DNA of 36,763 bases, from the IMG/VR virus record IMGVR_UViG_3300045988_134073, positions 1 to 36,763 of that record; one strand, 5' to 3'. Shown piece by piece: positions 7,218 to 36,522 of this stretch (position 1 is the stretch's first letter; each line of letters opens with the position of its first letter). A program made the position numbers and the translations under genes. The notes under the pieces were generated by a model that was not told where the DNA came from, ran no database searches, and saw only the letters and a list, made by a program, of their open reading frames with translations. The DNA comes from a virus.

Positions 7218-7895
7218 TTACCTAAAACTCTCGTTCCTGAATACAATGACGTGCATCATTTCGTTCATGCGGTCCACCAATCGCACGCCATACCGCTGGC
7301 GAAGCTCTTTCCCCGTTAGGTTGGTAGTGACGAGGGTGAAGAGGCCGCGAGCGTAGCGTGCCTCCAGTAGTTCGGTGATAGGCTCTATCACGTTGCCGTA
7401 GTCTACCACCTCGGCTGGCTCTGTGCCTACGTCGTCAATGGCTAACACACCGACGCTCATGAGGTGAACCTTCGCGGTCTTGTAAGTGGCAGCCACGGCA
7501 CGAGCCTCAACGAAGCGGACCGTATCGAGGCCGTACTGTGTGAACTCCGTTGGCAGCATACTTCGCGCCCTGAGCCATTCCACGGCATTCTGTATGGCCA
7601 ACGCCAAGGTGGTTTTACCATTGCCCGTTGTGCCACAGAATAGCAAACCATTCGGTTGCGCCCCTGTAAGGTGGCGGGCCACTTCGCCTACGATGCGTGT
7701 CGTGTCTTCGTCCATTTGCAGCGTGCGCCCTCTGCGCTCCACCTCCACTTCGTAGGCAGAGTAAAGCAGACAGTAAGCGTCTGCGACCGCCAGGGGAAGC
7801 CTAAAGGCGTGTGCTGTAGTCCGTTGCCGAAGTAGCTGCGACATCAACTCCTTTGCGTCGGGCAAGTGAACTTGCGTTGCTATTTTTCGTTCCAT
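7218..7895 (-). CDS. DnaC/IstB-like AAA+ helicase loader
   Basis: Walker A GTTGNGKTT, Walker B LAIDDVGTE and sensor motif LVTTNL. The start was chosen at MERKIATQ and overlaps the upstream ORF by about 95 nt. Confidence 0.8.
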   Translation of the reverse strand: MERKIATQVHLPDAKELMSQLLRQRTTAHAFRLPLAVADAYCLLYSAYEVEVERRGRTLQMDEDTTRIVGEVARHLTGAQPNGLLFCGTTGNGKTTLALAIQNAVEWLRARSMLPTEFTQYGLDTVRFVEARAVAATYKTAKVHLMSVGVLAIDDVGTEPAEVVDYGNVIEPITELLEARYARGLFTLVTTNLTGKELRQRYGVRLVDRMNEMMHVIVFRNESFR

Positions 7896-8706
7896 GAGTG
7901 TTGCGATTTTGTTGTTGCTGAATGCGAAGCCACGAAGTAAAGTGACGTTTGAGGTCGGTGAGGTCGTCGTGTTGTGCCTTGTCGTTGACGCGGCAGTCGA
8001 GCGCAAAGGCATCAAGCCATTCGCGTAGCTCGTCGCCGCTCAGGTGGTAGCGCATACGCACCAATTCACACCATGAAGCCTCAGCCATCAACGATGCCAA
8101 CAATCCCGTAAACGATGCTTCAACGTCTTCCGTCGTCGGTGATGACGGCAGCGCTTTTTCTACATCGTCTTTTTCTTTACTTTCCTTTACTTTACTTTGT
8201 GTACTTTCTTGCACACTTTTGTGCAGAAATGGTGCTTTCTTGCACAAGTTTGTACATTTATCGGCTTTTTTACCGAAGATTGGTGCATCTTTAGTCGAAC
8301 TTTCGACTATTCCAGTCGAATTTTCGTCTAAAAGGTTGTACGCTTCTATCGACGCTGCACGCCTACTATCTACACATATCTTTTTGTATCGTTCTTGAAT
8401 ACCTCTACTCGTCAGTACACCTTCCTCGTCAAGCATACGCCTATCTAACAACCCTAACGTAAGGCAGCTCTCTAAGACTTCTTGTATATACACCTCTCCA
8501 TACCCCGTTTGTTCCGAAATGATGAAGGGCAACTCTTTATCCCACGTCATGAAATACCCACTCTTGTAAATATAGCATAGCAGGAGAGCATATACTGCGA
8601 TCGCCTTACCACCGTTACGCCGAATTAACTTGCGTATCTTTATGTCCTGAAAAAAGTCTACTTCAAAGGGGAAGTAGTCTAAGCCCGACTTCTTCTGTCG
8701 GCTCAT
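7801..8706 (-). CDS. Replication initiation / replisome-organizer protein (DUF4373-like N-terminus)
   Basis: The N-terminus MSRQKKSGLDYFPFEVDFFQDIKIRKL is typical of Bacteroidota phage DnaD-like proteins. Lies upstream of the DnaC-like gene. Confidence 0.6.
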   Translation of the reverse strand: MSRQKKSGLDYFPFEVDFFQDIKIRKLIRRNGGKAIAVYALLLCYIYKSGYFMTWDKELPFIISEQTGYGEVYIQEVLESCLTLGLLDRRMLDEEGVLTSRGIQERYKKICVDSRRAASIEAYNLLDENSTGIVESSTKDAPIFGKKADKCTNLCKKAPFLHKSVQESTQSKVKESKEKDDVEKALPSSPTTEDVEASFTGLLASLMAEASWCELVRMRYHLSGDELREWLDAFALDCRVNDKAQHDDLTDLKRHFTSWLRIQQQQNRNTHGTKNSNASSLARRKGVDVAATSATDYSTRL

Positions 8707-8797
8707 AATTCGTGTGGTTTCGTATAAGGTCAATAAGTAGCACAACACTGCGGCCCTCTCTGTTGCATTCCTCTCACCACTTATTGGGGTGAGGCGG

Positions 8798-8993: not shown

Positions 8994-9437
8994 TTACTCA
9001 TGGTCGCTCAGCACCTCAACGATAGGGGTAAGATTGATGCCTAACACCTCAAACTCGCTAAAGTCAGAGTCACTCATACACTTGACGAATGTCTCGTAAG
9101 CATCAAGCATGTTAGGAGACAGAACCAAGTAATCACGCTTAACGATGCGCTCTTTGCCTGTCTTCTCGTTGACGAGAAGGCCTTCACAACGTACCTTATA
9201 GATCTTATCGCCATTTAGAGAACCTACCCAAAAGGCTGCTATGTTGCGCTTCACACAAGCCTCCACACCTACGTCTTCGACACCATTATAAGCACATACT
9301 TTTTCAGTAGCACGCGACTCAGCCTCAGCGAAAGTGGCGGCACGCACCAACCACGTCTCCTTCATGTTGGTCTTCTCTCCTTTTTCGGTCACACCGTCAT
9401 AACTGACGCGTACCTCTACCCAAAATCTTCTGTTCAT
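8994..9437 (-). CDS. DUF4494-like protein
   Basis: The pattern W.E.+V.Y....K..E.WLV.A..F.EAE.R resembles Bacteroidota DUF4494 proteins, from memory. Confidence 0.45.
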   Translation of the reverse strand: MNRRFWVEVRVSYDGVTEKGEKTNMKETWLVRAATFAEAESRATEKVCAYNGVEDVGVEACVKRNIAAFWVGSLNGDKIYKVRCEGLLVNEKTGKERIVKRDYLVLSPNMLDAYETFVKCMSDSDFSEFEVLGINLTPIVEVLSDHE

Positions 9438-9470
9438 AATTTTCCGTTTTCGTTAATAAAATGGTTGAGT

Positions 9471-9647
9471 GAGGAGTGTGGGAGTCGAACCCACTAATGT
9501 GCGATTGTTTCGAAGCTTATCCACTGCACGCCCAATAACCCAAAACCAACTTCATGCAGCAGACGACGATACCTCTCTTTGCCGCCTATCCGATTAACGG
9601 CCTATACTCCTCGTCTTTTCCATTACTATTCTCACGAACCGTAATGG
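9471..9647 (-). ncRNA. tRNA-like RNA unit 1 (142-nt body plus 5' hairpin)
   Basis: 7-bp acceptor gaggagt/actcctc, D-loop GTTAATCGGATAG and T-arm gtggg-TTCGACT-cccac, with about 87 nt between the D and T arms. The 5' hairpin is at 9620-9647. Confidence 0.5.
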
Positions 9648-9690
9648 AAATACAATCTTAATAATCTAACTACCTTATTCACACGAATGC

Positions 9691-9815
9691 AACGCGGTCG
9701 GGAGTTGAACCCGACTAACGGCCTAAGCGCCTCAGCCTATTAGTGAGCGCGGTCTATCCGATTAACCACCTATCGCGTTATATTGACTATTCTATTCCTC
9801 ACGAACCGAATAGTC
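9691..9815 (-). ncRNA. tRNA-like RNA unit 2 (89-nt body plus 5' hairpin)
   Basis: Acceptor aacgcg/cgcgtt, the same D-loop as unit 1, and T-arm tcggg-TTCAACT-cccga. The anticodon loop is a non-canonical 9 nt (CTAATAGGC) and the variable region is long. The 5' hairpin is at 9785-9815. Confidence 0.5.
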
Positions 9816-9913
9816 CCACTCATTCTATGAATGAATTAGAAGCCCATGGTCAGCGCGTGACGGGGCATACAATTAGAACTTTATAAATCATGAGTAAAAC
9901 CATTTCACACCTT

Positions 9914-10291
9914 TCATTCACCCGCCTTGGCCATTATCCAGCGCGCTATCTTGATTTTGATAGAGTTCTCACCCTTAGCACGCTCCGTATCGGCATAGAG
10001 GTCGTCACTATAAGGCGAAGCGCACGCCCAGCGGCTGCAATACGTCATCAAGGAGATGAGCGCGTCAGTCTCGTCGCCACTCTCCTTGTAAGCCGCCAAA
10101 ATAGATGCAACACAATGGAGAGCATAGTCCATTCCTGCTTGCTCGTAGGTGTAGTCCCTTACCAGGTCAGGGAATTTGCAGCGCTTCTCAACACCGACGA
10201 TGTAAAGCCTAAAGTCGATTAGCAATAGGTGCAAATCCTTGTTGTGGCGCTTTATCCTTTCTACGTATTCATGTACGTCTCCTTTATCCAT
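9914..10291 (-). CDS. Hypothetical protein
   Basis: 125-aa ORF in the early operon. Confidence 0.45.
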   Translation of the reverse strand: MDKGDVHEYVERIKRHNKDLHLLLIDFRLYIVGVEKRCKFPDLVRDYTYEQAGMDYALHCVASILAAYKESGDETDALISLMTYCSRWACASPYSDDLYADTERAKGENSIKIKIARWIMAKAGE

Positions 10292-12823: not shown

Positions 12824-14095
12824 TTACCCCCTTACATAATCAATCACGCGCCTCACGGCTTCATCTACCTTCTTAGCGTTTCGCCTTATATATATGTCGG
12901 CCATTGGATAGGGCGACTTGTGACCTAAAGCAGCATCTATCACTGCATCAGGCACGTCAAGTTCTGAGGCCAACGTTGCCCACGTGTGGCGCGCCCAATA
13001 GGAGGTAAGATCGGGAAACAAACCGCTATACACTTTCACCCGTTCTTTCGCCCGTTTGCCCTTATGCTTTACGTACACATAACACGACGGACCAACACGT
13101 TGCAGCCCGTCATTCACGTTACGAAGGAAACCCTTCCACGCCTCAACGCCACCGCTCAAACGCTCGCCAAAATAAAGCAAACGTTTCACCCCCTTATAAC
13201 GCTCAATAATCTCCAGCGCTTCAGGTGGAACCGTCAGCCGACACACAACCCCCGTTTTGCTCCGCCTGTATTCAATCACGCCACTCTCATTCAGCGGAGG
13301 CAACTCCATGAGGTCAATCATATTAATGCCCGCCAGATAAAACGAAAGCATAAAAAGGTCGACATACCTCTTTTGCCACTCTTCGCAAGGGTAACGCATC
13401 AACCGCCTCAAATCCTCCAACCTTAGCGAGCGTTTCATCGTTTCCTCCTTCTTTATCTTAAATCGCCTAAAAGGATACATTTCGGCCGGTATCACCTCTT
13501 CATCTATTGCAGCATTAAACACGGCACGAATATTGCGAAAGTGTATGCCCCGCGTGTTCGTGCTGCAGGTGTCAGCCATCCAAACCTCAAAATCCTTCAG
13601 CCACCCCACCGTCACATCTTTAAAGCACAACTCCTCCAACTTACAAAACTTCCTCAACTTCTGTAAAGTCATTTTATACACGCCCGCCGTTCTTTCCTTC
13701 TTACACCGACTCACAAACGTTTCAGCAAACGGCAAAAAACGCGCTTCCTCCTGTTTCTCCTCTCCAACGGCCTCACCCCCATTCCCATTCAACTCCAGCC
13801 GATCGAGCAAAGCCGCCTTAATCTCGCTTGCCCTCATTGCTTGAACATCATTAAAGCACGCCACCTCTTCAACAGTCAATTGCACCTTTGCCATTTTCAG
13901 TCGCAGCAACTGCGTCAGCTGTGCCGCCATGGGCGCGCCCACCACCCTACCGTTCACAAACTCTCCCTCGCGCAACATCACCCCCGTGCTCAGCATTGCC
14001 GACGTTCCACGATTGTAAATAACGATACAAAGCCGCCCTTTCCCTTGTTCGTCCTTACGCCTTAAATCTAAATACCACTTTAATTTATATGCCAT
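12824..14095 (-). CDS. int: Tyrosine integrase (Bacteroidota type with N-terminal arm-binding domain)
   Basis: 423 aa. Catalytic-region motifs ARHTWAT, LGH and DIYIRR. Adjacent to attP. Confidence 0.9.
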   Translation of the reverse strand: MAYKLKWYLDLRRKDEQGKGRLCIVIYNRGTSAMLSTGVMLREGEFVNGRVVGAPMAAQLTQLLRLKMAKVQLTVEEVACFNDVQAMRASEIKAALLDRLELNGNGGEAVGEEKQEEARFLPFAETFVSRCKKERTAGVYKMTLQKLRKFCKLEELCFKDVTVGWLKDFEVWMADTCSTNTRGIHFRNIRAVFNAAIDEEVIPAEMYPFRRFKIKKEETMKRSLRLEDLRRLMRYPCEEWQKRYVDLFMLSFYLAGINMIDLMELPPLNESGVIEYRRSKTGVVCRLTVPPEALEIIERYKGVKRLLYFGERLSGGVEAWKGFLRNVNDGLQRVGPSCYVYVKHKGKRAKERVKVYSGLFPDLTSYWARHTWATLASELDVPDAVIDAALGHKSPYPMADIYIRRNAKKVDEAVRRVIDYVRG

Positions 14096-14259: not shown

Positions 14260-14266
14260 CCTTATG

Positions 14267-14319
14267 TCGGGGCGACGGGATTCGAACCCACGACCCCCTG
14301 CTCCCAAAGCAGGTGCGCG
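14267..14319 (-). tRNA. Partial tRNA-Pro(UGG), 3' 53 nt only; attP core
   Basis: The minus strand reads cgcgca-cctgc-TTTGGGA-gcagg-gggtc-gtggg-TTCGAAT-cccgt-cgccccg-a. That covers the anticodon arm, T-arm and 3' acceptor strand. There is no 5' half. Confidence 0.85.
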
Positions 14320-35307: not shown

Positions 35308-36522
35308 TTAGTTGTTGGTGGTTGAGTTAGCCTCCATTCCCTTCAGTCCCTTCAAGTTGGCGCTGACCAATGGGAGGTCGCCTCCCTCGACGGGTGGCAT
35401 GTTCTCAGCACGTCGCCAGTCGTTGACGGTGTAGATACCTGCAGCTATCGTCTGCGTCTGGTACTGCACGCGGCTTGCGAGGTCGCACGCATAGAGGCTG
35501 CGACGGTCGAACTCAAAGCGACGCTCACAACAGAGCGAAGGCTCGATGAGCTTGCGGTGGAGTTCGCTCTCTATCTTACGGAGCAGGGGGTTGAGCGTGT
35601 TGGAGAGGAAAGCCACGTTGGCCATTTCGGCACTCTTGTAATTGTTGCTCGTGTCGTCAAAGACGAATGAGGGGTGTACACCGAAGAAGCGGCAAAGCTC
35701 ACGCACCGTAAACTTGCGGCTTTCGAGAAATTGCATGTCGGTGCTGGAGAGCGAGAGTTGGTTAAACTTTACTTGCCCTGGTAGGCTGACTATCTTGCGG
35801 CCTTCTGAAAATGATTGGTCGAGGTCGGTAGCCGTCTTGGCCAATTCGTCGTCTTGATAGTCGCCAAATCCGCGCACGCTCGTGTCGTTGCCTACGATGC
35901 CGCGCACGTTGCCCCCATTGGCAAATCGGTTGAGCGTCTCATTATCGCCTGTAGCGGCTATCTGCGTAGTAAGGCGCGCAAAGGCTAAGGTGCTGATGCC
36001 TTGTTGTCCGTCGATGGTGAGGTTTTTGAGGTGTACGACTTCGTCCTCCGCGAAGGTGCCGCTAAGGCGGTTGGTCATGTCCATTACCGTGTAGGTGCGA
36101 TTAATGGTGTCGTGACTCACTGTGCCAGGTTGGCAAAGCACAAGGCGATCCACCTCAAGCGAGGGCGAGTACTGCGGCACGATATAAGCATTACCCGTCA
36201 GCAACATCTGTTGCACGGCTTGCGCCCAGAAGTCGAACGCGGAGTAAAGCTCGTTGGGTTGCACGCTCAATAGGTAGTGGAGGCGCGACTGGCGGTCGTC
36301 GACGAATATGCCGCCCTTTAGTTTCATATAGCGGAGAGGCAAGTTGGCCACACTCTCTGAAAGCAAACGCACGCAGCGATAGACGGTGCTAACGGCCAAG
36401 GGGTCAGCCGCTGCGGAGGTGAAAAGCGGCAAAGCCCCCGCGCGTACAGTCCTACCCTCTGGCGATGAGTTAACACCCTCGCTGCTGCGTTTTATCTTGA
36501 ATAGTCTGCGTAATACGTTCAT
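35308..36522 (-). CDS. Portal protein (HK97 family)
   Basis: 404 aa. It follows terL across the circular junction. Confidence 0.85.
   Translation of the reverse strand: MNVLRRLFKIKRSSEGVNSSPEGRTVRAGALPLFTSAAADPLAVSTVYRCVRLLSESVANLPLRYMKLKGGIFVDDRQSRLHYLLSVQPNELYSAFDFWAQAVQQMLLTGNAYIVPQYSPSLEVDRLVLCQPGTVSHDTINRTYTVMDMTNRLSGTFAEDEVVHLKNLTIDGQQGISTLAFARLTTQIAATGDNETLNRFANGGNVRGIVGNDTSVRGFGDYQDDELAKTATDLDQSFSEGRKIVSLPGQVKFNQLSLSSTDMQFLESRKFTVRELCRFFGVHPSFVFDDTSNNYKSAEMANVAFLSNTLNPLLRKIESELHRKLIEPSLCCERRFEFDRRSLYACDLASRVQYQTQTIAAGIYTVNDWRRAENMPPVEGGDLPLVSANLKGLKGMEANSTTNN

Follow-up and report, generated by a model that had tools for sequence, protein, structure and literature searches.

Introduction

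The RNAC and RNAD species of bacteriophage T4 mature together with transfer RNAs (tRNAs). Also called species 1 and 2, they are small non-tRNA RNAs found by the phage tRNA genes, and their biological roles are unknown (PMC3014915). The present study concerns a pair of tandem tRNA-like units, each preceded by a conserved hairpin, in a gap free of open reading frames (ORFs) in the IMG/VR virus record IMGVR_UViG_3300045988_134073, of which we analysed positions 1 to 36,763 (36,763 nt in all, referred to below as the window). Like RNAC and RNAD, these units are predicted to be phage-encoded small non-tRNA RNAs, but the two sets show no detectable sequence relationship and come from different host phyla, and whereas the T4 RNAs lie inside a tRNA cluster, the units are situated in what would be the 5' untranslated region (UTR) of recombination genes.

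Small structured RNAs embedded in the early operon of a temperate phage, as the units appear to be, have a precedent in the CI RNA of P4 and the C4 RNAs of P1 and P7, which are freed by a tRNA-processing enzyme. These RNAs lack a canonical T arm, however; their Rfam models found no match here, and their loops are complementary to nearby targets, of which none was found for the units in the window. A tRNA or tRNA-like fold inside a longer transcript also serves to bring in RNase P and RNase Z, and so to fix RNA ends, in mitochondrial tRNA punctuation, in mascRNA/MALAT1 and in the TMERs of MHV68, and the tRNA-like unit of mascRNA and the TMERs is non-decoding, as ours would be, but all of these systems are eukaryotic or organellar. 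The tRNA-like domain of transfer-messenger RNA (tmRNA) and YrlA resemble the units in that acceptor, T arm and D-loop elbow are kept and the anticodon arm is replaced. The units differ from tmRNA in having neither a tag ORF nor pseudoknots, and the ends of YrlA lie in its Ro-binding stem, not in the acceptor stem. Finally, theta ribozymes, which are similar to that of hepatitis delta virus, flank tRNAs of gut phages and have been proposed to process them, in a paper that mentions neither the hairpin nor the tRNA-like element (PMC10879173). Theta and hatchet ribozymes are found in the same ecological phage group as the units, and hatchet stands behind the same leader hairpin; these ribozymes cleave themselves, however, whereas the tRNA-likes would need host RNase P and RNase Z, and no ribozyme match was found in the window.

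We describe two motifs that are supported by covariation and new to Rfam 15 and to annotated phage records, namely a tRNA-like core and a hairpin with the apex GGUUCGUGAGAAUAG. Judging from its homologues, the tRNA-like family is widespread in gut phages and apparently undescribed; our literature search found no account of the motif string, of a phage family of anticodon-less tRNA-likes or of the hairpin, nor did it find any family, in bacteria or in phages, of anticodon-less elements dedicated to punctuation.

Results and discussion

Two tRNA-like units with non-canonical middles

The preliminary description of this stretch reported two tandem tRNA-like RNAs on the minus strand of a 450-bp gap in the early operon. 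The ORF-free gap exists, its extent being 476 nt (9438-9913) between an ORF of 125 aa and the DUF4494 gene, and the acceptors, T arms and long middles reported for units 1 and 2 are all present in the sequence (Table 1). Both units have a 7-bp acceptor and a 5-bp T stem with a UUCRANY T loop. Folding of the single sequences gives the acceptor stem and T arm in each case, together with a D stem of 6 bp and a loop of 9 nt, AAUCGGAUA (A-A-U-C-G-G-A-U-A). The D arm had been described as a 3-bp stem with a 13-nt loop; folding, double changes in homologues and RNAalifold all replace this with the longer stem and shorter loop. Since the D loop carries A14, G18, G19 and A21, the elbow of a tRNA should be able to form.

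The likeness to canonical tRNAs (RF00005) thus comprises the 7-bp acceptor, the 5-bp T stem with its UUCRACU loop and the four D-loop bases, as well as a discriminator that is mostly A, a CCA that is mostly not encoded, as in phage tRNAs of the same clusters, and a leader hairpin that also stands before real tRNAs in other phages. The units differ in their D arm, whose loop fits but whose stem has 6 bp and follows AUAG in place of the 3-4-bp stem after U8-N9, and in their middle of 17-100 nt, where both the units and their homologues lack a 5-bp anticodon stem with a 7-nt loop (Y32, U33, anticodon, R37). The 9-nt loop of unit 2, for which the absence of a canonical U33-anticodon layout had been remarked upon, is borne out by the sequence, and its homologues share no such layout. 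By shape, an RNase P/RNase Z substrate has acceptor and T helices that stack coaxially over about 12 bp, a T loop and an unpaired 3' tail past the discriminator; these features are present in both units and in 24 homologues.

Neither ARAGORN nor Rfam resolves either unit as an ordinary tRNA, an outcome which the preliminary description had left to be checked. ARAGORN found no tRNA or tmRNA gene in the window, and Rfam 15 gave no match there at the gathering score, including none to a ribozyme, C4 or CI model. With E values up to 10, a 701-nt region returned only noise and no RF00005 match, the best score in the tRNA clan being 15.4 bits for tRNA-Sec (gathering score 47), while the mascRNA model scored 14.7 bits (gathering score 42.5); neither a tmRNA family nor YrlA was among the matches. 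Homologues in L005, L016, L057 and L182 were likewise rejected by RF00005 and ARAGORN, although ARAGORN labels one L057 homologue tRNA-Leu(UAG) and the L008 copy tRNA-???. Family members can therefore be miscalled as odd tRNAs (tRNA-??? or tRNA-Leu) in annotation. When the 701-nt region and a 76-nt family member were compared by blastn with 50,697 deposited phage genomes, only generic T-arm words matched, so that the family has no annotated relative among these genomes.

Covariation of the tRNA-like core

We searched for homologues in three scans with exact patterns, each of which had the D loop as its anchor. In 10 other distinct variants of the region the two units and the two hairpins are present in the same order; these variants, carried by 11 viral contigs and one Prevotella metagenome-assembled genome (MAG; L181), differ from the window by compensatory substitutions. 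About 15 other lineages, all phages or prophages of Bacteroidales, have one to three related units. A Prevotella MAG carries near-identical copies, and assemblies of Alloprevotella, Bacteroidaceae and other Bacteroidales contain more distant relatives. Acceptor sequences are unrelated between lineages (GAGGAGU, AAGGAGU, GCAGGUG, AAGUGCU, CCUGAG, CGCAGGG, GCCGCAG, GGAGAGG, GCGCGG and UAACGCG) and the 3' strand always matches; homologues of unit 1 have seven other acceptor sequences, every one compensated. Across 10 diverse homologues, 98.3% of cells are paired, versus 74% in column shuffles and 35-55% with the partners slid, and double changes occur in 7/7 acceptor pairs and 3/5 T-stem pairs.

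A covariance model, R1, was trained on these 10 sequences, which are of unit-1 type and include unit 1 but not unit 2. Run against the window, R1 recovers unit 2 at 44.7 bits (E=1.4e-10), the next match scoring 13.9 bits (unit 1, a member of the training set, scores 141.5 bits). That unit 2 is found untrained shows that the two units are homologous. When 24 distinct homologues were fitted to the model (alignment A4), 97.6% of cells were paired (98.2% in the acceptor and 99.1% in the T stem) and 17 of the 18 core pairs showed double changes, among them all six pairs of the D stem, with variants such as GCCGUU/GGCGGC, GUGGUU/GACCGC, GAGGCU/GGCCUU, GUUGCU/GGCAAC and GCUUCU/GGGAGC. The acceptor, D and T pairings are therefore preserved in homologues, the property on which the tRNA-like proposal had been made to depend. 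We used model-based alignment because a mixed MAFFT alignment of both unit types (A1) placed the 3' acceptor strand one column off register. Independently of the model, RNAalifold on a MAFFT alignment of 7 unit-2-type sequences recovered the acceptor, the 6-bp D stem and the T arm, and found no conserved structure in the middle.

One D-stem position is U:G in 22 of the 24 homologues. As conserved U:G and G.U pairs, here and in the hairpins described below, would be A.C mismatches on the opposite strand, they identify the element as an RNA read from the minus strand. Close relatives of the window show few substitutions, and these preserve pairing or base class: pair 9748:9729 of unit 2 changes from G:C to A:U, one T-stem pair from C:G to U:G, and the T loop retains a purine at position 57. 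The discriminator is A in 17/24 units, with a C next to it in 16/24, and ACCA is encoded in three (L182, 1899-2040; L185; L192). Taken together, the comparative data indicate that the units are functional, strand-specific structured RNAs.

The same data bear on the idea that the units are non-functional remnants of tRNAs or a DNA-level element (an att duplicate, a recombination boundary between mosaic modules, or an origin). The units do lie at the exact module boundary where the type of downstream recombinase swaps, and the phage integrates into a tRNA gene, a tRNA-Pro fragment being present by the integrase (14266-14318). This fragment is the true attP, however, and lies 4.5 kb away, and unlike att fragments the units are complete, including the 5' acceptor strand and the D arm. 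Compensatory double changes in 17 of 18 pairs and G:U pairs that are valid on one strand point to selection on RNA and not to DNA or decay, and we consider this explanation very improbable.

Table 1. Positions of the RNA features and of the annotated genes in the window. R1 is the covariance model described in the text.
Feature	Position	Strand	Description	Basis
Large terminase	1079-2785	minus		Pfam + PHROGs
DnaC-like loader	7218-8015	minus		Pfam + PHROGs
Lin1244-type replication initiator	7801-8748	minus		Pfam + PHROGs
DUF4494 gene	8994-9437	minus	first gene past the RNA cluster	Pfam + PHROGs
Unit 1	9470-9612	minus	tRNA-like, 142 nt + discriminator A9470	sequence, folding, R1 model
Unit 1 acceptor	9612-9606, 9477-9471	minus	GAGGAGU pairs with ACUCCUC	sequence
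Unit 1 linker	9605-9602	minus	AUAG	
Unit 1 D arm	9601-9581	minus	6-bp GCCGUU/GGCGGC, 9-nt loop AAUCGGAUA	
Unit 1 long hairpin	9563-9520	minus	lineage-specific, includes CUGCAUG/CGUGCAG	
Unit 1 conserved segment	9500-9494	minus	ACAUUAG, last G opens the T stem	
Unit 1 T arm	9494-9478	minus	GUGGG-UUCGACU-CCCAC	
Hairpin 1	9618-9649	minus	9-bp stem UUCCAUUAC/GUAAUGGAA, apex GGUUCGUGAGAAUAG	fold z=-5.29
Mini-hairpin	9677-9688	minus	AUUC-GUGU-GAAU, directly 3' of unit 2, resembles the apex of the large hairpins	weak evidence
Unit 2	9689-9780	minus	tRNA-like, 91 nt + discriminator C9689	sequence, folding, R1 model
Unit 2 acceptor	9780-9774, 9696-9690	minus	UAACGCG pairs with CGCGUUG	sequence
Unit 2 linker	9773-9770	minus	AUAG	
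Unit 2 D arm	9769-9749	minus	6-bp GUGGUU/GACCGC, 9-nt loop AAUCGGAUA	
Unit 2 stem-loop	9748-9729	minus	non-canonical, GCUCA-CUAAUAGGC-UGAG(G)C, 9-nt loop	
Unit 2 T arm	9714-9698	minus	UCGGG-UUCAACU-CCCGA	
Hairpin 2	9785-9815	minus	8-bp stem GACUAUUC/GAAUAGUC, apex GGUUCGUGAGGAAUAG	fold z=-5.05
Upstream co-oriented ORF	9914-10291	minus	125 aa, no family match	Pfam + PHROGs
Integrase	12824-14095	minus	with SAM-like domain	Pfam + PHROGs
Portal	35308-36522	minus		Pfam + PHROGs

Loss of decoding

The non-canonical character of the middle, first remarked upon in the two units of the window, holds throughout the family. The middle has no helix and only 17-23 nt in L196, L197 and L190 (74-80 nt in total), is a 5-bp stem with a 4-nt loop in L023, L056 and L057 (76 nt), carries loops of 9, 9, 16 and 20 nt in the unit-2-type RNAs (window unit 2, L023/L057 and two L182 units), and is taken up by long, unrelated hairpins of 45-100 nt in window unit 1, L182 and the group with the GCAGGUG acceptor. 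All that recurs is a purine-rich start and a YUAGG...ACAUUAG segment before the T arm. With a middle that has no conserved length, sequence or structure, the units cannot decode; both are non-decoding RNAs of a family in which the place of the anticodon arm is either empty or taken by a hairpin particular to the lineage.

It had been suggested that the units might be genuine tRNAs with expanded anticodon arms, acting in suppression or frameshifting, and a recoding tRNA or one with an intron in this arm would be a related case. The 9-nt loop of unit 2 contains both CUA and UAG, ARAGORN assigns tRNA-Leu(UAG) to the L057 homologue and tRNA-??? to the L008 copy, and L023, L056 and L057 have a real tRNA-Sup(CUA) in the same cluster. 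We nevertheless reject a suppressor or frameshift role for both units and find any decoding role hardly credible, given that the unit-2-type loops of 9, 9, 16 and 20 nt share no U33-anticodon layout, that unit-1-type RNAs have 4-nt loops or no arm at all, that no RF00005 match appeared with E values up to 10, that there is too little room for a group I intron, and that the long ORFs of the window (568, 1348, 1036, 812 and 404 aa) are intact in code 11, the standard code. In our estimation, the variable middles, the covariation and G:U pairs that are valid on one strand only effectively exclude decoding tRNAs, att remnants and DNA-level elements.

The suppressor tRNA(CUA) of the three phages just mentioned is 95-98 nt long and stands in the same RNA cluster (L057:1618-1713, L023:841-936, L056:4104-4201). 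Past it come a hairpin and then an odd tRNA-like RNA with the T arm GAUAG-UUCGAUU-CUAUC. These phages may use amber recoding; the phage of the window does not.

The leader hairpin

Each unit was described at the outset as preceded by a hairpin with a different but complementary stem, and this is confirmed by stems that covary across copies. The 3' end of hairpin 1 lies 5 nt before unit 1 and that of hairpin 2 lies 4 nt before unit 2; in neither case did any of 200 shuffles fold as well. The apex GGUUCGUGAGAAUAG is itself paired: above a Y:G closing pair comes a G.A mismatch, then the helix GUUC/GAAU, and the loop is a GUGA (GNRA) tetraloop; GGUUCGUGAGGAAUAG has a GNRA-type loop with one extra G. 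The apex helix is supported by the compensatory variants GUCC/GGAU (L052, L059) and GUCU/AGAU (L060, L104), and the loop varies to GCGA (L017) and to the pentaloops GUGAG and GUGAU. Among relatives of the window, hairpin 1 shows a C:G to U:A change in the stem, U:A to C:G in the apex helix (L052, L059) and the GCGA loop (L017), while hairpin 2 is identical except for the GUGAU loop of L044.

A scan with the exact apex 15-mer located the hairpin in more than 120 viral contigs, with complementary stems of unrelated sequence at 147 of 162 occurrences; apex invariance in this collection is by selection, a single large gut virome dataset supplied many of the contexts, and some contexts are interrelated. 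In 81 distinct hairpins, 91.7% of cells are paired versus 65.9% in shuffles, each of stem positions 3-7 occurs with four to six types of pair, U:G (39/81) and C:G (38/81) are the usual closing pairs, and G.U is found in all 81 apexes. The hairpin is intergenic in 121/134 contexts and mostly co-oriented with its neighbouring ORFs (97:17 downstream, 94:19 upstream). An acceptor-plus-T-arm closure follows 2-13 nt past the stem (mode 4-5) in 44 of 117 unique contexts, versus 30 of 3000 random positions and none of the 117 antisense ones, and 13 of the structures downstream are canonical tRNAs. A U-run directly follows the stem in 30/117 contexts. The hairpin is a separate, widespread motif that precedes tRNAs, tRNA-likes, hatchet ribozymes and U-runs. 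In the window itself the hairpins are followed by AAAAGAC and AAUA, without a U tract, and a terminator scan found none in the gap, so that we rejected intrinsic terminators as an explanation for them.

The hairpin could be the main element, either as a signal in the nascent RNA to which RNA polymerase or a conserved factor responds, as with antitermination by boxB/nut or put, or as a folding insulator; it would then permit read-through and the folding of untranslated structured RNAs, with the tRNA-likes as one class of cargo. The 81 hairpins do present an apex that is invariant on unrelated stems (with invariance built in by the exact 15-mer), their GNRA loops and the GUGAG and GUGAU pentaloops resemble boxB-type loops, and they are intergenic, co-oriented with genes and placed before tRNAs, tRNA-likes, ribozymes and ordinary ORFs alike. 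The 30 of 117 copies that precede U-runs look like terminators, however, and not like antiterminators, and no promoter motif was found at a fixed distance upstream: no Bacteroides-type TAnnTTTG or TTTG stood at a fixed distance in 89 non-redundant copies, which also gave no support to the hairpin as a promoter-proximal 5' end. No boxA-like motif or N-like protein turned up, although no search was aimed at them. As a signal at the hairpin would also leave the strong structural selection on the tRNA-likes unexplained, we regard it as improbable as the main function.

Hatchet ribozymes cleave at their own 5' end. One starts 0-2 nt past the GGUUCGUGAGAAUAG hairpin in L067:1994-2138 and L078:211-355, and another 36 nt past it in L139:6264-6466; RAGATH-7 and RAGATH-9 occur near hatchet loci, and a RAGATH-1 hammerhead in L148. 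The adjacency of hairpin and hatchet connects the hairpin with gut-phage regions that are rich in ribozymes and still unexplained. Arrays of the hairpin with assorted tRNA-likes are present in L105/L100/L118, L060, L068/L124, L064, L102 and L144. There are three to six different tRNA-likes, most of them preceded by the hairpin, in L105:1300-2560 (also in L100, L118, L060 and L068/L124). Their anticodon arms include a 4-nt loop, a 19-nt loop or possible pseudoknot, and 12-bp helices; some are little more than an acceptor stem and T arm joined by a short linker, and some pass RF00005, at only 36-40 bits.

Position at an early-operon boundary

In 13 cases, 17-46 nt separate the 3' end of the unit (or of the last one in a cluster) from a co-oriented ATG; in the window the ATG of DUF4494 is 32 nt past unit 1. 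A co-oriented ORF stops 7-17 nt upstream of the unit in five lineages. The minus strand has no terminator-like site between the 125-aa ORF and the DUF4494 gene, which, together with their position between co-oriented genes, suggests that the units are intercistronic or 5'-UTR RNA of the early operon.

Downstream of the element the genes encode ERF then a PD-(D/E)XK nuclease (L016), ERF (L057), RecT then YqaJ (L026), RecT-like proteins (L197, L186), NinB/Orf (L183), a Mu-like transposase (L190), or DUF4494 then a replication initiator (the window and L182); the downstream ORFs of L184, L001, L188, L192 and L185 had no family match. As far as gene order tells, the element is located at an early-operon boundary where the type of recombinase swaps between phages.

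DUF4494 (window 8994-9437, minus strand; L182:2242-2694) fills the slot taken by ERF, RecT or NinB in the other element-bearing phages, directly before the replication initiator, and may for this reason be a recombination or single-stranded-DNA-binding protein. The protein has no sequence relative in the PDB and no NCBIfam match. Of its 449 homologues, the 120 that were listed share at least 91% identity, too little diversity for an alignment of use in structure prediction. They come from many gut metagenome contigs, which suggests an abundant Prevotella phage lineage.

A possible role in RNA processing

The preliminary description had listed processing substrates among its options, and this option is the best fit to the anatomy and context of the units, with cleavage itself as the predicted step. 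Our favoured reading, held tentatively and put a little below an even chance, is that the tRNA-likes are RNase P/RNase Z processing modules that punctuate the early operon. The parts retained by the family are the 7-bp acceptor on a 5-bp T stem, the UUCRACU T loop, the D loop with A14, G18, G19 and A21, and an unpaired discriminator. The reading rests on the family keeping everything that RNase P and RNase Z need while dropping everything needed for decoding, and on its standing behind the hairpin just where real tRNAs and a self-cleaving ribozyme are found in other phages. A minihelix of acceptor and T stem with a single-stranded 3' end is enough for cleavage by RNase P, which also processes the non-tRNA phage RNAs P4 CI and P1/P7 C4.

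According to this model, the units would be transcribed within the early operon, by transcription running through the gap, and host RNase P would cut on the 5' side of G9612 and U9780, the 3' ends being finished by RNase Z or by exonucleases and the CCA-adding enzyme. The polycistronic RNA would thereby be split, such that the upstream mRNA fragment would end in a stable, possibly protective, GNRA-capped hairpin and the downstream recombination/replication mRNA would begin with a short A-rich leader about 30 nt before the AUG. The tRNA-likes would thus do the same job as the real tRNAs and hatchet ribozymes found behind the same hairpin elsewhere, and the released RNAs might perhaps be stable and act in trans.

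Several points weigh against this model. Cleavage is predicted from shape, and the tRNA-like three-dimensional fold is an assumption, in view of the 6-bp D stem and the 4-nt AUAG linker. Alignment A4, being fitted to the model, favours the model's structure. The D arm and ACAUUAG are conserved far beyond the recognition needs of RNase P and RNase Z (D-loop invariance is partly by construction, inflated by the D-loop-anchored patterns), which suggests a sequence-specific partner that punctuation does not explain. The two to three tandem units of the window and L182 exceed the need of a single cut, and in tRNA arrays the hairpin lies between tRNAs, where 3'-end protection has no obvious use.

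Some of these points would be accounted for if the processed units accumulated as trans-acting tRNA mimics, with the elbow, D arm and acceptor end binding or titrating a host or defence factor that senses the shape of tRNA (a toxin that modifies tRNA ends, for example, a nuclease that binds the elbow, or a modification enzyme), or if the tRNA scaffold served to present the variable hairpin as an arm for regulation or antisense pairing. The D arm, ACAUUAG and T loop are near-invariant in homologues while the helices covary freely, the units come in one to three tandem copies, other gut phages carry arrays of diverse tRNA-likes with abnormal anticodon arms, the early region is the usual place of counter-defence genes, and P4 CI and P1/P7 C4 are regulators processed by RNase P. 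Yet the acceptor sequences differ between homologues, the neighbouring genes include no consistent partner protein, and a trans-acting RNA needs no tight spacing of 17-46 nt to a start codon. The antisense idea was rejected, the variable arms of both units finding only 10-11-mers in the sense strand of the window, about the chance rate. Having no anticodon loop to cleave, the units could be neither substrate nor decoy for anticodon nucleases, which makes the decoy originally proposed unlikely; one directed at factors which recognise the acceptor stem, T arm or elbow is possible. Overall, we judge mimicry to be an unlikely, if serious, main role. Punctuation, mimicry and a signal at the hairpin are not, as modelled here, mutually exclusive.

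A broader proposal, which we think possible but doubtful, would make the locus part of a modular RNA-end system of Bacteroidales gut phages, in which a GNRA-capped leader hairpin is combined with an interchangeable cleavage module (a tRNA, an anticodon-less tRNA-like or a hatchet), and would make the tRNA-likes a new RNA class with a role beyond passive processing, either as stable mimics engaging a host or defence factor through the D arm and elbow or as a gate on the recombination/replication module.

If the processing model were true, phages of the Bacteroidales, which are dominant in the human gut, would have made of the tRNA fold an operon element dedicated to this use and unable to decode, located just before their recombination and replication genes; in bacterial viruses it would parallel mitochondrial tRNA punctuation and processing of the mascRNA type. 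The model would also provide a functional context for the unexplained self-cleaving ribozymes (hatchet) and RAGATH-associated RNAs of the same phages.

Phage setting and other observations

The window is the genome, of about 36.8 kb, of a temperate siphovirus-type phage with all genes on the minus strand, and Prevotella is its predicted host group. Past DUF4494 follow the replication initiator and the DnaC-like loader (Table 1). Beside the integrase, 53 nt on the minus strand (14266-14318) are identical to the 3' part of tRNA-Pro(UGG), and an intact tRNA-Pro flanks the integrated relatives L010 (251-326) and L008. This stretch is the attP core, and the window is thus the excised or circular form of a phage that integrates into tRNA-Pro.

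A long-range inverted repeat, AGAACUCUAUCAAAAUCA ... UGAUUUAUAAAGUUCU, with arms about 59 nt apart at 9866-9975, spans the stop codon of the ORF at 9914-10291; it came up as spurious plastid 3'-UTR matches in the permissive Rfam search. The mini-hairpin directly 3' of unit 2, perhaps another small motif, may have a relationship to the hairpin apex, and similar CNC-GUGA-GNG mini-hairpins are found past tRNA-like 3' ends in L105, L060 and L077. Finally, one copy of the large hairpin, with the stem GAUUGUGGU/CCACAAUC, recurs in L069, L081, L128 and about 15 further contigs of 85-178 kb. It is followed by about 70 nt of conserved sequence (AUAUCUCUAAACGUGAACAUAAGGAGGUACGUAAGUCAUUCGAUUGACGUUAGGGAUCU) that has no Rfam match at the gathering score and could be another structured RNA.

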